DNA from: a virus
Lineage: Duplodnaviria; Caudoviricetes
DNA length: 64,000 nucleotides
Reading direction: 5' to 3' (one strand)
IMG/VR virus record: IMGVR_UViG_3300037067_026010
Coordinates: 96,001 to 160,000 of that record
In this document: one piece after another, positions 2,257-19,615 of the stretch
Layout of the letters: each line of letters opens with the position of its first letter
How positions within the stretch are numbered: position 1 is the stretch's first letter
Made by a program: the position numbers and the translations under genes
The notes under the pieces: generated by a model
Database searches by the model: none
What the model saw: the letters and a program-made list of their open reading frames with translations, nothing else
Told to the model about the DNA's origin: nothing

Positions 2257-3216
2257 TTAGGGCACAGGCTTTAAGCTGCCTACCGCCGCGCCCCGCGAAC
2301 CCTTTCGACAACCCGGCCCGCATTTGGAGCCCATACGCTGCGGTTTTGCGCAGGCTTCGCCGCCCTTTGAGCCGATGGCGATGATACGCGAAATAGCCGT
2401 GCCGGTCCGCTTCGGCCCGCCGTCGCCCGGCCCGAAGCCGTGCTCCTTGCGGAGTTTTTCCCAGTCGGGGGCGGCCGCCCCTTTACCCCATAACGGCAAT
2501 GGCCGTCCCTGTGCATCTGTCGCAGGGTTATATAGCGTGCTAAAATCGGGAAAACGCTTGATGGCCGGCATGTGTAACCGCGAGATTGCCCCCGCGCCCT
2601 GGTCGATGGCGGATCCGAGACCGGCACCGAACGCTTCAGGTGGCGCTTTTCCCTTCATAGCACTGCCAATTTGTCTGACGGCATCCTGTAAACCGGATGC
2701 AGCCCGCGATAATGTCGTCGTCCTACCGGCATACTGCGCACGTCCTGCGGCAGCTGGGGCAGCCCGAGGAGCCGCAGCTTCTTTCTCCTCCTCTTCATCG
2801 CTACGCCGCCGCTTGCCGAGCAGCCGTTGCAAGGCCAGCAGCCCTAAAGCGCCTCCGCCCGCGCCAAGCCCTACCTTGCCCGCTGTCGGCATGGCACCCC
2901 AGGCTTGGCCGAGATTGCCGCCTAGGAGTTTATTCCAAGCTTCGCCATAACCTGCCGGCTCCGCCGCAGGAGCGGGAACAGGCGCAGGGGCGGCTGCACC
3001 AGCTGCCGCCGGGGGCGACAATCTGTCCATCGGTGATTCCGGCAAAGCCGGCACGGGGCTGGGTACTTTCGGCACGGACGCCTGAAAAGCCCTCGCTGGA
3101 GCCTCCTCCAGGGTCTGCCGCGCTTGATTAAGCATATTCGGCTGCGCGGCCGCCGGTTGTCGTAAGGCCGCTTTAACGCGAACCTGGGCGGCTTTAAAGA
3201 GTTTGCTGTCGATCAT
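2257..3216 (-). CDS. Ala/Pro-rich putative virion protein with a hydrophobic Gly-rich segment
   Basis: 319-aa ORF; K-x-A motifs; GLGAGGGALGLLALQRLL followed by RRR/EEEE. Confidence 0.55.
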   Translation of the reverse strand: MIDSKLFKAAQVRVKAALRQPAAAQPNMLNQARQTLEEAPARAFQASVPKVPSPVPALPESPMDRLSPPAAAGAAAPAPVPAPAAEPAGYGEAWNKLLGGNLGQAWGAMPTAGKVGLGAGGGALGLLALQRLLGKRRRSDEEEEKEAAAPRAAPAAAGRAQYAGRTTTLSRAASGLQDAVRQIGSAMKGKAPPEAFGAGLGSAIDQGAGAISRLHMPAIKRFPDFSTLYNPATDAQGRPLPLWGKGAAAPDWEKLRKEHGFGPGDGGPKRTGTAISRIIAIGSKGGEACAKPQRMGSKCGPGCRKGSRGAAVGSLKPVP

Positions 3217-7137: not shown

Positions 7138-7884
7138 TTAAGAAACAGCTGTCGGTTTATGAACGCCGAATCCGCGGAAGCTATCGCAACTGCGACTCTC
7201 GTCCACCCAGCAGGCGGCCACCGGCAGTATAGCACCGGCAATAAGTGCGCTATTGAGTAAGCCCAAGGCGGTAATCGTTCCTGCACGCTCCCAGGACACG
7301 CCCCTAAGTTCACCGCACACGTGGGGTACATCCAACGCTGCCTTGGTAATAGTCACCCGCTGTGTTATCAGGTGCCAAATCGCGGCTTTGTCCTCGCGCG
7401 TAACATCATTCAACACACTAATGATGGCATGGTGCTGGAGGTCTACAAAACCCTCCAGGAGAGTGCGCAACACGTCACGCTCCGCTCCCGAAATCTCCAG
7501 GTGGTTCGCAGAGATGTACAAGTCCAAGGCCCGTTCGATAATAGGGGCAGCTTCAGATTTTTTCTCCACGGTGGGCGTGGACGCCTCTGCCTGTGCCGGG
7601 GCCGGGGCCGGGGCCGGGGCTGGAGTCGCAGCAGGCACTGCAGGTGCCGCGAGCCTATCGATTAACGGCGCGGGCGGTTCCGGAATCGTGCCGCGGATCG
7701 CGTCGTAACACAGTATGGCGTATTCGCGTGCCGTCAGCTCTATCTCTTGCGCTCCACCCCAGCTATGTTTGATCGGTTGGCCGGCGAAATAGAAACATTC
7801 CCATCGCTGGGTGTCGCGAGCGCGGCCTTGATACCAGCCAGGCTCCTGTGGGATAAACGTATCGTGTGGAATCAGATTACGCAT
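7138..7884 (-). CDS. Hypothetical protein with Pro/Ala linker
   Basis: 248-aa ORF, AGGAG SD. Confidence 0.65.
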   Translation of the reverse strand: MRNLIPHDTFIPQEPGWYQGRARDTQRWECFYFAGQPIKHSWGGAQEIELTAREYAILCYDAIRGTIPEPPAPLIDRLAAPAVPAATPAPAPAPAPAQAEASTPTVEKKSEAAPIIERALDLYISANHLEISGAERDVLRTLLEGFVDLQHHAIISVLNDVTREDKAAIWHLITQRVTITKAALDVPHVCGELRGVSWERAGTITALGLLNSALIAGAILPVAACWVDESRSCDSFRGFGVHKPTAVS

Positions 7885-15858: not shown

Positions 15859-16039
15859 GTGATTTCCCTTCGTACAAATCATGGTTTTCGGTATTGGGTC
15901 AGGAATGTGTTGCCGGAATCCTTCTTGAAATGTTTTTTCTTTTTTGCAATCCACCCGAAAGAGTAATAGGCGCATCGGATTCCATTGGGATACATTGAAT
16001 CCAGCTTGGATTCCAAATGGCATTTCTAAGGGAAAAACT

Positions 16040-16693
16040 ATGATAGAACTCGAAAATTTGCGGGTTTCGCTCACAAAGAACGGGTATCTCAAGATCGCCA
16101 CGATTGTAGCAGAGCATCCCGGCCATGAAATGCTGGACCATGTTTCCGGCAGTCATGCGGGGGTCAACTTGGTCCGCTCACAAGTGGCGAACATTCTTTG
16201 CGCCGATCCGATAACCGGCACACTGCCAACGCTGTGGGATGATTTGCGGGATTACAATCTGCCGACGATCAGGGCATTTACACTTGTAGCGGTCATCTTC
16301 TCCCATGAACGATTGATCCGCGCATTTCTACGGGCTGGGCGCGGAACACCGTTTGGTACACTTCTTCGCAACGAAATGACCGAGAAGGAGTTTACGAATC
16401 TGCAATTTGCCATGTCGTCAGTGGGACTATGCGATTACCAACGCGGATCCGATCAAATCACTTATGATATGTCGGTTCTTACGGAGCAACTCAGCCGCGT
16501 CGGCGACTTGGTGCGCGAATTGTTGCGAGTCAAATTACAACGTTGTGGCTGGAGAGACCCTGATGTCTTCCGCATCGCGGCGGATCCTCCGGTTGAGGAA
16601 CAATGTATCCAAGAAGGCTTCCACGAAGTTTTTGGCATGACGGAGCATGCGTTCAGACAATGGCTTAGCGGCCGACCGAGACAGCCGCGCTAA
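16040..16693 (+). CDS. Unknown passenger protein, convergent with the MTase
   Basis: AAGGGA SD then MIELENLRVSLTKNGY; stop overlaps MTase stop. Confidence 0.7.
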   Translation: MIELENLRVSLTKNGYLKIATIVAEHPGHEMLDHVSGSHAGVNLVRSQVANILCADPITGTLPTLWDDLRDYNLPTIRAFTLVAVIFSHERLIRAFLRAGRGTPFGTLLRNEMTEKEFTNLQFAMSSVGLCDYQRGSDQITYDMSVLTEQLSRVGDLVRELLRVKLQRCGWRDPDVFRIAADPPVEEQCIQEGFHEVFGMTEHAFRQWLSGRPRQPR

Positions 16694-17310
16694 GCACCGA
16701 CCGCACTTGCCATCCGTTCGGATCGTGAGTAGCCACGAATAAATGGGCGACTTTGCAAATAGGTTTCCGCTTCGTCGCCCCATGATTTCCATCGTGGGCG
16801 CGGCGCACGCGCAAAGAGTTCGAGATATGGCCCGGGGCTGCAAGCCTCGATTACGTCGTACAATTCGTCCGGTTTTCGGGAATGTTCGCGCTTGCGAGAT
16901 TCGACGATGTTGACTTGCCGCCGTCCAGGCGCAAGGGTTCGCATTGAACCACGAACGCCGAAAAGAACAACTTCCGTCACGTTTCGGAAATAGAAACCGA
17001 CGCCACGGCCATCCGGTCCGCCGTCCTTTCGTATTTTGTACCAGATTATATTCGTTTTGTAGGTAAAGCCCCAAGCATCCAGAACATCAAGCCCCTCTTT
17101 TAAGAGAGCGTTCGGAACCCATAGATACAAGTGGCTCCGTTCGGCGCAATGTGATGCTATCGGCATATCGCAGATTTCATCCAGCGACATTGTCTGGTAT
17201 CGGCGAAGCCGTTGATGCTCCGGCGCAACCTTTCCAGTGCGATTATCGAACCTCCAGGGGGGGTCTGCTAAAATGGTGCCAAAATGCCCAACAAGGCCGG
17301 GAAGCGTCAT
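16690..17310 (-). CDS. MT-A70 family adenine methyltransferase
   Basis: ILADPPW, HLYLWVPN, WGF.YKTN..W.K, G.GFYFRN.TE, REHSRKP, YLELFAR, WGDE. Confidence 0.92.
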   Translation of the reverse strand: MTLPGLVGHFGTILADPPWRFDNRTGKVAPEHQRLRRYQTMSLDEICDMPIASHCAERSHLYLWVPNALLKEGLDVLDAWGFTYKTNIIWYKIRKDGGPDGRGVGFYFRNVTEVVLFGVRGSMRTLAPGRRQVNIVESRKREHSRKPDELYDVIEACSPGPYLELFARAPRPRWKSWGDEAETYLQSRPFIRGYSRSERMASAVGA

Positions 17311-17380
17311 ATTTCACCTGTAGCTTTTAATGGTTGTTTCGGTTATATCGGCTAAAAGACCGCCGATATTCAATTTTTCC

Positions 17381-17434
17381 GTCCACCCAAATTATACACA
17401 AATAAAAAACATTTGCAAGAGTTTTTGGGTGTAC
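17381..17434. promoter_or_regulatory. Inverted operator pair 1 over the MTase promoter
   Basis: GTCCACCCAAA (17381-91) ... TTTGGGTGTAC (17424-34); minus-strand TTGCAA-16-TATAAT (17418-17391). Confidence 0.65.
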
Positions 17435-17489
17435 AAAAAAGATCCATGCCGGATCTCAATCAGAGAGGAGAAAATAGTACTAGAAATGC

Positions 17490-17581
17490 GGCGGGTGTAC
17501 CGCGTCTTGGTCGGCGCAGCAGCCTTATAAACTGCCGTAGGTCTCGGCTATGCCGAAGGGGTTCAACTCCCACACCCGCCG
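17490..17581 (+). tRNA. Non-canonical (9/3) long-V-arm tRNA, anticodon UAU (allo-tRNA-like)
   Basis: 9-bp acceptor GGCGGGTGT/ACACCCGCC; 5-bp D-stem with GG loop; anticodon loop CTTATAA; V-stem TCGGC/GCCGA; 3-bp T-stem GGG/CCC with TTCAACT loop; discriminator G; no encoded CCA; followed by T7. Confidence 0.8.
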
Positions 17582-17799
17582 TTTTTTTCTTCAAGAATGT
17601 CGCTATTTTTCTTAAGAATTCGGTTTGAAACACGCAATAGCACATCGCGGACAAACTCGGAGGTATTTTTTGCTTTCTTTAATTTAGCGGCTTGTTTAAC
17701 GAGGGCATACTCCGCTTTAGGCATCCGAAAATATTGTTTGGGAGTCTCGCCTGTGCGGGGACGACCTCTACTACGGAGGGATTTAGCTTTCTTTTTCAT
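17563..17799 (-). CDS. Ribbon-helix-helix regulator
   Basis: GRPRTG..PKQYFRMP..EY.LVKQAA......SEFVRDVL. Confidence 0.7.
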   Translation of the reverse strand: MKKKAKSLRSRGRPRTGETPKQYFRMPKAEYALVKQAAKLKKAKNTSEFVRDVLLRVSNRILKKNSDILEEKNGGCGS

Positions 17800-17805
17800 A
17801 CCCTT

Positions 17806-17880
17806 AGTTTACGTCCACCCAAAATTTTTGTCAATTCAAATAATATTTGGGTGGACAAATAATCGATGACTGTGTATAAT
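17806..17880. promoter_or_regulatory. Divergent promoters (RHH / transposase) with operator pair 2
   Basis: Minus TTGACA-17-TAAACT (17834-17806); plus TGGACA-17-TATAAT (17852-17880); GTCCACCCAAA 17813-23 and TTTGGGTGGAC 17846-56. Confidence 0.75.
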
Positions 17881-17890
17881 ATGAATATCA

Positions 17891-17926
17891 ACAAAAAACC
17901 CCGGTCAGACTGGCATCCGGCCGGGG
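17891..17926 (-). terminator. Hairpin with U-tract upstream of the transposase
   Basis: CCCCGG...CCGGGG stem followed by T6 on minus strand. Confidence 0.45.
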
Positions 17927-18010
17927 CAATCACAACCAAGCGGTTAAGCCTGATAGCGACTAGACACCCCTATTTTAGGCTTGCCCGCTGCAAAATGCAA
18001 AGGGTAATCC

Positions 18011-19009
18011 GTGATAGCTTTCGCCTGCAAGCATGAACAAGTTAAGAAACAAGGCCATGATAGGAATGGCAATCAACGCTTCCGATGCACCGTTTGCGGT
18101 AAGACCTGGATTGCTTCTAGGGTTAAGCCGTTTGGAGAAATGAGGATCGACCCGAAGAAAGCCCTTCAAGTGATTGAAATGCTCATGGAAGGCGTATCCA
18201 TCCGTTCGGCCGTCAGGCTGACCGGCATCGCCAAGGGGACGATTTTGCGACTTTTGGAACTTGTCGGGGACCGTGCCCAATACTACTGGACAATGGCGAT
18301 GAAGAATCTACCGGCAGCCAACGTACAAGTGGATGAGACCTGGGGGTTCGTTTACGCCAAGGAAAAAACTTGCTTGCGAAAACACCTTGGCACTGATTGT
18401 GGGGATGCCTACACCTTTTTGGCAATCGAGCGCGACAGCAAGTTAATCCTCGCTTGGCATGTAGGGCGGCGAGACCCGCAAGACACCGCTTGGTTTTCCG
18501 AGAAGCTACGAAACAACACGATGGGTCGATTCCAATTGACCACCGATGGATTCAAGCCATATTGTACGGCAATCCCGGAAGCATTCATGGGTAAGATCGA
18601 CTTTGCCCAATTGATTAAGACCTACGGAAAGCCGACCGGAGAGAGAAAGGCGGAAGCCCGCTATAGCCCCGCCGAAATAACCGGCATACGCAAACGGGAA
18701 ATGTGGGGCAATCCCGATATGAACGCCGTCAGCACTTCGCACATCGAAAGGCAAAACTTGAATATCCGCATGGGCGTTCGGCGCATGACTCGGCTAACGA
18801 ACGCATTCAGCAAGAAGTGGGAGAACCACGAAGCCCACTTGGCCTTGTGGTTTCTCTACTACAATTTCTGCCGACCCCATGCTACATTATCCAAGGGAGA
18901 GAAAAAGGGCGAAAGAGGAACGCCGAAAACGCCGGGCATGGAAGCCGGATTGACCGATCATGTTTGGAGTCTCGAAGAATTGCTCAATACTTTAGCAACA
19001 CATTATTGA
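18011..19009 (+). CDS. IS1-family DDE transposase (single ORF)
   Basis: N-terminal Zn motif (C.H...QRFRCTVC), HTH EGVSIRS..RLTG, QVDETWGFV, TTDG, STSHIERQNLNIR...RRMTRLTNAFSKK, YNFCRPH, TPGMEAGLTDHVW. Confidence 0.93.
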   Translation: MIAFACKHEQVKKQGHDRNGNQRFRCTVCGKTWIASRVKPFGEMRIDPKKALQVIEMLMEGVSIRSAVRLTGIAKGTILRLLELVGDRAQYYWTMAMKNLPAANVQVDETWGFVYAKEKTCLRKHLGTDCGDAYTFLAIERDSKLILAWHVGRRDPQDTAWFSEKLRNNTMGRFQLTTDGFKPYCTAIPEAFMGKIDFAQLIKTYGKPTGERKAEARYSPAEITGIRKREMWGNPDMNAVSTSHIERQNLNIRMGVRRMTRLTNAFSKKWENHEAHLALWFLYYNFCRPHATLSKGEKKGERGTPKTPGMEAGLTDHVWSLEELLNTLATHY

Positions 19010-19615
19010 CCCAATACCTGGTTTTCGCATTTTCTTGTTTTTCTTCCGGGCTGCCCGTTTTGCCTCGATAAGTTCGGAGCACTTCGCCGTCAACGCCTCC
19101 GCGCAGGCTTGCTGTTGCTCGTCGTAGTCCTCCGCGTCCTGTTCGATGCCCAAGTGGTGGCATGCCGCGCGCGCTAATTCCTCGCCGAGACACTCCACGA
19201 CGTCGCCCACGGGGAGGCTGCTGTCGAACATTATGACCGCCCGCTTGCTTCGGTCGCTAGGGTATGTAGCATACCCTACTGCGCCGGCCTCCTCTTGCGC
19301 CAAATCCGGCTCCACCCACCAAACGAGCGGACAGGGCAAATTCGGCCACAACGCCATGTAAGCCCGCGCCAGCATGTCGAACGGATCGATGCTGAAGAAC
19401 CTGCAGCCCGTGTTGGTCCGCGCGACGCGCTTTGCAACGCCGGCAGTTCGGCACTCTTTCGTGAAGCTCGGGATGATCACCACGCTGAGGCATATTCCGG
19501 CAACCAGCATCCGGTGTAGATGCGGCGCCTCCGCCGGCAGTCCGAGGGCCAGCACGAGCCCCGCTATAAGCAGAAAGACGCGGCACGCCAGGAGCACGTA
19601 GACCTTAAACATCAT
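18992..19615 (-). CDS. Membrane-anchored protein with degenerate HExxH-like helix; C-terminus altered by IS
   Basis: Two TM segments; LGEELARAA; pre-insertion end would be MRKP-TGA. Confidence 0.65.
   Translation of the reverse strand: MMFKVYVLLACRVFLLIAGLVLALGLPAEAPHLHRMLVAGICLSVVIIPSFTKECRTAGVAKRVARTNTGCRFFSIDPFDMLARAYMALWPNLPCPLVWWVEPDLAQEEAGAVGYATYPSDRSKRAVIMFDSSLPVGDVVECLGEELARAACHHLGIEQDAEDYDEQQQACAEALTAKCSELIEAKRAARKKNKKMRKPGIGSIMCC

Follow-up and report, generated by a model that had tools for sequence, protein, structure and literature searches.

Bases 17490-17581 of the DNA analysed here very probably encode a tRNA-shaped RNA of the allo-tRNA(UAU) family that is under selection and travels as cargo of an IS1-family insertion sequence. 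The DNA (the window, 64,000 nt) comprises bases 96001-160000 of a 210,569-bp viral record that is rated complete. For the function of the RNA we give about an even chance to a role, predicted from comparison of sequences, as a private AUA decoder for the element's own transposase gene, controlled by a ribbon-helix-helix (RHH) protein and probably charged with serine.

The tRNA gene and its parts lie at the following positions.

17490-17581, + strand: allo-tRNA(UAU) gene, 92 nt, recognised by its fold and by covariation in homologues
17490-17498 / 17572-17580, + strand: acceptor stem of 9 perfect pairs, GGCGGGTGT / ACACCCGCC
17499-17501 / 17540-17542, + strand: extra "stem 5" of 3 bp, enclosing the D and anticodon arms
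17502-06 / 17513-17, + strand: D stem, 5 bp
17519-22 / 17532-35, + strand: anticodon stem, with a C17523.A17531 mismatch closing it
17526-28, + strand: anticodon TAT, in the loop CTTATAA
17544-48 / 17552-56, + strand: variable-arm stem, 5 bp
17559-61 / 17569-71, + strand: T arm, with a 3-bp stem (GGG / CCC) and the 7-nt loop TTCAACT
17581, + strand: discriminator G
17582-17588, + strand: run of seven T directly after the discriminator, probably the 3′ end or trailer of the tRNA transcript

A sequence-only reading of this gene had listed the 9/3 fold, the 5-bp D stem, the long variable arm, the discriminator G, the TAT anticodon and the C.A mismatch, and all of these are present in the sequence. 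Stem 5 was absent from that list. The D stem itself has 5 bp and a loop of 5-6 nt, and the three further pairs of stem 5 lie outside it. Folded without constraints, the sequence adopts the 9/3 cloverleaf as its minimum-free-energy structure (z = -2.66). CCA is not encoded at the 3′ end of the gene.

The same reading had expected ARAGORN to give a weak or pseudogene call. The program called tRNA-Ile(tat) at 17489-17582, with a forced fold. In the Rfam search, the best match was tRNA-Sec (RF01852) with 38.3 bits (E 2e-6) at a gathering score of 47, and no Rfam family reached its gathering score for the window tRNA. No sigma-70-like promoter was found upstream of the tRNA on the + strand. The regions upstream of the tRNA vary across the family, except for a loose GCGAACC...GTGTCA pattern seen by eye in some loci. 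Fifteen of 21 family members have a C just before the 5′ end of the tRNA (17489 in the window), where it could form a pair with G73. Pairing of C17489 with G73 would give a 10-bp stem in the precursor and might shift RNase P cleavage; no covariation was seen for this pair.

Four routes led to about 25 tRNA homologues: a viral contig (L007) with a relative of the neighbouring transposase, one metagenome pattern scan, an anticodon-blind D-arm pattern in viral contigs, and model searches in genomes. In a MAFFT alignment of 18 sequences, 95.6% of the cells of the six-helix structure were paired and 14 pairs had changed on both sides. None of 500 shuffles was as good as the real alignment, and slid controls were about 50% paired. 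With 25 sequences, 96.0% of the cells were paired and 16 pairs had changed on both sides. Double changes occur at all five pairs of the variable-arm stem. The outer pair of stem 5 covaries as well (25 sequences), with C-G in 22, U-A in 2-3 and A-U in one, which is the window.

The alignment also decides the register of the fold. The ninth acceptor pair is standard in 15 of 18 sequences (GC in 13, UA in one, AU in one) with two double changes, so that the covariation that the sequence-only reading had asked of its 9-bp stem is found in the homologues. The 8/4 fold was rejected, its extra T-stem pair being standard in just 1 of 18 sequences, as was the 7/5 fold, whose two required pairs are standard in 1 and 4 of 18. 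The acceptor and T branch always has 12 bp. The proposal of an allo-tRNA-type 9/3 gene with UAU is supported.

Cells with G.U outnumber those with A.C by 27 to 4 in the alignment, which indicates that the + strand is the functional one and rules out a minus-strand function for the tRNA. Three sequences combine the D loop UCGCU with the T loop UUGGAGU, and the rest combine UUGG with UCG. This swap fits a compensated change in which the G19:C56 elbow pair would be kept, and it probably arose in a single evolutionary event. Two irregularities are frequent: position 31:39 is mismatched in 18 of 18 sequences, a count for which the search pattern is partly responsible, and 13 of 25 members have a C.U mismatch at acceptor pair 7. 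Clearly broken members are L045, L048, L086 and L038.

UAU is present in members that were recovered without use of the anticodon (L084, L087, the truncated L086, L042, L047 and L062). A divergent 9/3 relative in genome G004 (L046:1501-1593, - strand) has the anticodon UGU, for the Thr codon ACA, and discriminator A. Its 5-bp anticodon stem is fully paired, and its T stem is AGG/CCU, with one A-U pair in place of G-C. The UGU anticodon means that the scaffold is not restricted to UAU. Six candidates from the metagenome pattern scan (L018, L023, L024, L027, L035 and L041) were rejected as chance matches outside the family, as were eight of the 11 viral matches and L079 from the D-arm pattern.

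Among published groups, allo-tRNA(UAU) is the most abundant kind of allo-tRNA and is linked to transposons and toxin-antitoxin genes (PMC5389517). Judged by its features rather than by alignment to published sequences, the window gene is a member of this group. Both show a sub-threshold tRNA-Sec-like match with the anticodon UAU and not UCA, a 12-bp acceptor/T branch with a split other than 7/5, a long variable arm and G73. Both have mismatches that weaken stems. Stem 5 makes a five-way junction in the family described here, and a possible five-stem junction was mentioned for allo-tRNA(UAU) by Mukai et al. 2017 in Nucleic Acids Res (PMC5389517). Neighbouring transposon or toxin-antitoxin genes are also shared, and the published members come from soil and sediment metagenomes. 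There are differences as well. UAU is filed under the 8/4 type, with only Arg, Leu and UAA anticodons given for 9/3 (PMC5389517; review PMC7609411), whereas the UAU family here fits 9/3 and not 8/4. The published hosts are Acidobacteria, whereas the sequences here come from Planctomycetota genomes and viral contigs. No covariance-model match was obtained in 151 Acidobacteriota genomes, a weak test in which only 28 candidates were scored per genome.

The tRNA gene lies within an insertion sequence, whose features are as follows.

15890-19018: insertion sequence of the IS1 family, with inverted repeats, target duplication and transposase
15890-15913: left inverted repeat, 24 nt
18995-19018: right inverted repeat, 24 nt, 22/24 complementary to the left one
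15882-15889 and 19019-19026: 8-bp target duplication TGGTTTTC
15944-16693, + strand: passenger ORF of 249 aa with no family match; a 45% identical copy is in L022
16690-17310, - strand: passenger gene for an MT-A70-type methyltransferase (PF05063, E 5.6e-31)
18011-19009, + strand: IS1-family DDE transposase, 332 aa (NF033558, 101.2 bits at a cutoff of 100)

The order inside the element is the 249-aa ORF, the methyltransferase gene, the tRNA, the RHH gene on the opposite strand and the transposase gene. The transposase also matches NF050000 with 37 bits. In L022 the MT-A70 copy adjoining the tRNA is 80% identical. The tRNA is a built-in part of the IS1-family element and stands outside the phage's own translation kit. 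The target duplication is intact, so insertion into the phage was probably recent.

Between the methyltransferase and transposase genes, the tRNA is surrounded by the RHH gene and several possible control elements.

17563-17799, - strand: RHH gene, 78 aa, convergent with the tRNA, whose last 19 nt it overlaps
17439-17457, - strand: terminator-like hairpin and T run, just beyond the tRNA 5′ end
17381-91 and 17424-34: inverted pair of GTCCACCCAAA boxes with one mismatch, between the methyltransferase gene and the tRNA
17813-23 / 17846-56: second inverted pair of GTCCACCCAAA boxes, between the RHH and transposase genes

The boxes are candidate RHH operators. The minus-strand hairpin is also present in L022, with one compensatory pair, and if it terminates transcription, the RHH transcript probably includes a full antisense copy of the tRNA. 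In most homologous loci the tRNA is followed directly by the RHH stop codon, whose reverse complement forms the three bases after the discriminator. The RHH protein matches TacA1 at E 9e-4, which is below the cutoff. A TacA/TacT toxin-antitoxin pair was rejected on that sub-cutoff match and on the lack of a GNAT gene within the element.

The order of tRNA, convergent RHH gene and transposase gene recurs in eight loci (the window, L007, L021, L029, L032, L036, L062 and L087), with a transposase of the same family lying 450-510 nt after the tRNA start. The transposases of this module are only 30-76% identical. Perfect 26-nt inverted repeats enclose the whole module in L032. An exact 10-mer search found no inverted repeats around the modules of L007, L021, L036 and L062, which leaves the window and L032 as the two elements with demonstrated ends. 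The cargo upstream of the tRNA differs, being MT-A70 in the window and L022, a MazF-like gene in L029 and L042, and a helix-turn-helix (HTH) protein gene in L021. The tRNA and RHH genes occur with no transposase nearby in L033, L038 and L045-L047, and several of these tRNAs are decayed.

The module is also found in bacterial and metagenome contigs, beyond phage, and this distribution, together with the status of the tRNA as IS1 cargo, disfavours the suggestion that it is an antiviral or phage device. Relatives of the transposase occur in 25 of 401 sampled Planctomycetota genomes, few of them with the tRNA, and one genome has five tRNA copies. On one metagenome contig, two near-identical allo-tRNA(UAU) copies lie 3.6 kb apart (L029:3909-3999 and 7474-7564). 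One is followed by a transposase gene and the other follows genes for DUF6941, an unknown ORF and a MazF-like protein; the first copy has a C-G pair at 31:39 in place of C.A. ARAGORN also called tRNAs close to IS1-family transposase genes at L012:3738-3814 (- strand), L013:3257-3329 (+ strand) and L070:1095-1168 (+ strand). Two of these have unusual A34 anticodons (Ala AGC and Ile AAT), and they may be cargo or insertion targets.

To compare codon use, we placed nine transposases that have a linked UAU tRNA in one alignment with sixteen tRNA-less ones. The window transposase has ATA at 18014-16 (codon 2), 18677-79 (codon 223, a conserved column) and 18686-88 (codon 226). In clade A (the window, L007, L008, L029 and L021; 38-76% identical), all five sequences have ATA at one column, beside which the codons vary freely. 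At the four other columns with conserved Ile, every codon is ATC or ATT. In clade B (L036, L062, L087 and L032), ATA accounts for 3 of 3 and 3 of 4 Ile codons at two columns and is never used at the other conserved Ile columns. Codon 2 is ATA in the window, L007 and L008. Over the aligned core, 16 of 128 Ile codons are ATA in tRNA-linked genes, against 4 of 177 in tRNA-less genes (Fisher p = 6e-4, for related sequences). The tRNA-bearing transposases are related, so the codon p-values overstate independence, and the positional pattern is the stronger evidence. GC3 is 0.76 in tRNA-linked and 0.83 in tRNA-less transposase genes. Since ATA is kept at fixed positions in the transposase, the tRNA probably serves the element's own gene. 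Neither PMC5389517 nor the other literature found reports the fixed module of tRNA, RHH gene and IS1 transposase or the conserved ATA codons.

A sister IS1 element in a Thermoguttaceae genome (L008) has a transposase that is 71% identical, an RHH gene of the same family and the same ATA codons. In this element the allo-tRNA is replaced by a canonical 7/5 class-II tRNA of serine type, encoded on the opposite strand (L008:3424-3523, - strand), which likewise has UAU and G73. The RHH gene is upstream of it on that strand, and a hairpin precedes the tRNA. This tRNA scores 56 bits with the Rfam tRNA model, was missed by ARAGORN and has an unusually long variable arm of about 33 nt. Two serine-type scaffolds with the same UAU in sister elements indicate that the anticodon, and probably also the serine-type body, are under selection.

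Several features bear on the amino acid. The serine-type identity that had been read from the window gene is borne out by its long variable arm, G73, G1-C72 and G2-C71. G73 is present in 17 of 18 family sequences, and the acceptor of family members commonly starts with GGAGAG. The family model gives canonical tRNA-Ser genes about 37 bits, which indicates that the family derives from tRNA-Ser. SerRS ignores the anticodon. AlaRS identity was rejected, position 3:70 being C3-G70 in the window and A3-U70 in the family.

The residues found at the ATA columns in tRNA-less homologues give a mixed picture. The hydrophobic fraction has a median of 0.44 at these columns and 0.81 at other Ile columns (p = 0.06 with all columns, 0.014 with the recurrent ones). 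In many tRNA-less relatives, the main ATA column of clade A holds the first Cys of a CxGC motif. One recurrent column of clade B (column 290) is I, V or A in homologues and fits Ile better than Ser. Provided that decoding occurs, we lean towards insertion of serine, as the structure predicts.

We propose the following sequence of events for a private AUA decoder. RNA made from the element would be processed and receive CCA from host enzymes, and charging would most likely be by SerRS. The charged tRNA would then read the AUA codons kept at fixed positions in the transposase gene, so that completion of the transposase, and possibly the residue inserted, would depend on the element's own tRNA. 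The convergent RHH protein may set the level of both tRNA and transposase through the candidate operators upstream of each. The further step, that a mobile element has an altered code of its own in which a Ser-charged tRNA reads AUA at fixed transposase sites, is a tentative suggestion.

Several observations speak against the private decoder. Six published allo-tRNA(UAU) that were converted to CUA showed no amber suppression in E. coli, and two of the six were lethal (PMC5389517). The five-way junction, the mismatch at 31:39 and the C.U at acceptor pair 7 are unusual for a working tRNA. The I, V or A at column 290 speaks for Ile rather than Ser, and the relatedness of the transposases and the slightly lower GC3 of tRNA-linked genes weaken the codon statistics. 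Some loci with the tRNA and RHH genes have no transposase, and no convincing tRNA promoter was found.

Some of these observations also speak for a non-translational role. The RNA might be a tRNA-shaped regulatory RNA, such as the antisense partner or 3′-end element of the convergent RHH transcript, a processing signal, or a mimic that would bind or divert a tRNA-targeting enzyme, for example the MazF-like toxins beside some copies. Inactivity of the published UAU members in E. coli translation is what such an RNA would show, and the family conserves both its mismatches and its five-way junction. Nearly everywhere the stop codon of the RHH gene adjoins or overlaps the 3′ end of the tRNA, and the window and L022 have a minus-strand terminator beyond the tRNA 5′ end. 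L029 and L042 have a MazF/PemK-like gene directly upstream of the tRNA, and some tRNA-RHH pairs lack a transposase. This explanation leaves unexplained why UAU is kept on two scaffolds, the 9/3 allo-tRNA and the canonical 7/5 tRNA of L008, and why the linked transposases have fixed ATA codons. Moreover, selection for the translation machinery seems visible in the 12-bp acceptor/T branch, in U33 and A37, and in the elbow covariation. We consider a regulatory RNA possible, at perhaps one chance among four.

It is unlikely that the tRNA is a toxin that mistranslates the whole proteome, or the toxic half of an addiction module, by inserting Ser at AUA under restraint by the RHH repressor. Other allo-tRNAs do insert Ser at Leu codons and kill E. 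coli, two UAU variants are lethal, the family is often near toxin-antitoxin genes, and candidate RHH boxes lie upstream of the tRNA. However, such a toxin would be lost together with the element and could enforce retention only through a stabler toxin and a labile antidote, and nothing points to such a pair. The phage would also be hit hard, with ATA at 9.0 per 1000 codons (541 sites by crude gene calls). Five copies are tolerated by one genome, and the positional conservation of ATA in the transposase is left unexplained. Of the earlier suggestion of Ser at AUA with a toxin or decoy role, the decoding part remains plausible; the toxin and decoy parts are disfavoured, the conserved ATA codons of the transposase pointing to private decoding.

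A third explanation concerns the phage. The insertion may have been kept since an Ile-charged AUA decoder would benefit a phage that uses AUA far more than its GC-rich host does. The IS-borne tRNA-Ile(tat) is the sole tRNA that ARAGORN calls in the whole 210-kb phage record, and ATA makes up 21% of phage Ile codons (crude gene calls) compared with about 2% in GC-rich tRNA-less transposase genes. A tRNA-Ile with UAU is also a known route to AUA reading, that of Mycoplasma mobile (PMC3575796). If the tRNA were active, insertion of Ser would be harmful to the phage and insertion of Ile helpful. Yet the gene came as cargo of an insertion sequence with an intact target duplication, the family lies mostly outside phages, and G73, the long variable arm and the tRNA-Ser ancestry speak against charging by IleRS. 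We regard this benefit to the phage as improbable. A decaying relic with no function is the least probable of all, since the stems of the window gene are perfect and every family helix has compensatory changes, despite the four clearly broken members and the pseudogene that Mukai et al. described in Edaphobacter C40 (PMC5389517).

Two further observations were made on phage sequences. Window positions 12000-38000 are an extended series of very short ORFs, most of which are encoded by the minus strand and few of which exceed 120 aa. A pattern scan combining anticodon loop and T loop also recovered class-II 7/5 tRNA-like genes in phage tRNA clusters. These have the anticodon UAU, A73 and an encoded CCA and lie at L002:255-345 (+ strand), L003:about 2855-2978 (- strand), L004:4995-5088 (+ strand), L005:2369-2459 (+ strand) and L006:1797-1887 (- strand). 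They share a variable arm such as GCGCCAGATTAGCGC, and ARAGORN calls none of them. At L005, the one locus searched, Rfam gave no match at E 0.001. These genes are a family distinct from the allo-tRNA, and their A73 and long arm suggest a leucine-type body that reads AUA.

The private decoder can be compared with known systems. In Streptomyces, the tRNA-Leu(UAA) encoded by bldA is dedicated to the rarest codon of a GC-rich genome and gates the few genes that have TTA codons. The logic is shared, in that a dedicated tRNA for a rare codon gates genes that keep this codon. However, bldA is chromosomal, canonical and correctly charged and controls development, whereas in the present case a single mobile element holds both the tRNA and its target gene, and the tRNA body predicts a non-cognate amino acid. 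With phage-encoded tRNA genes that match codon usage, the window tRNA shares a codon often used by the phage; it differs in being cargo of an insertion sequence, in its non-canonical fold and serine-type body, and in standing outside any tRNA cluster. The tRNA-Ile(UAU) of Mycoplasma mobile and of other bacteria without tilS likewise reads AUA with a UAU anticodon (PMC3575796). Their tRNA is a canonical class-I tRNA-Ile charged by an adapted IleRS, whereas that of the window is class II, serine-like and has G73.

The link to one transposase family and to conserved AUA codons makes the role of this tRNA testable by ordinary experiments. The phage copy means that such elements, with a potentially mistranslating tRNA, move on viruses. 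If the codon link holds, this would be the first insertion sequence known to bring a decoder for its own gene, and it might be a natural case of targeted sense-codon recoding. If, in addition, the code is altered, the element's RHH-controlled tRNA, and not the tRNA pool of the host, would set the completion and possibly the sequence (Ser rather than Ile) of the transposase. The element would then possess a private translational switch for transposition, moved between cells by a jumbo phage.
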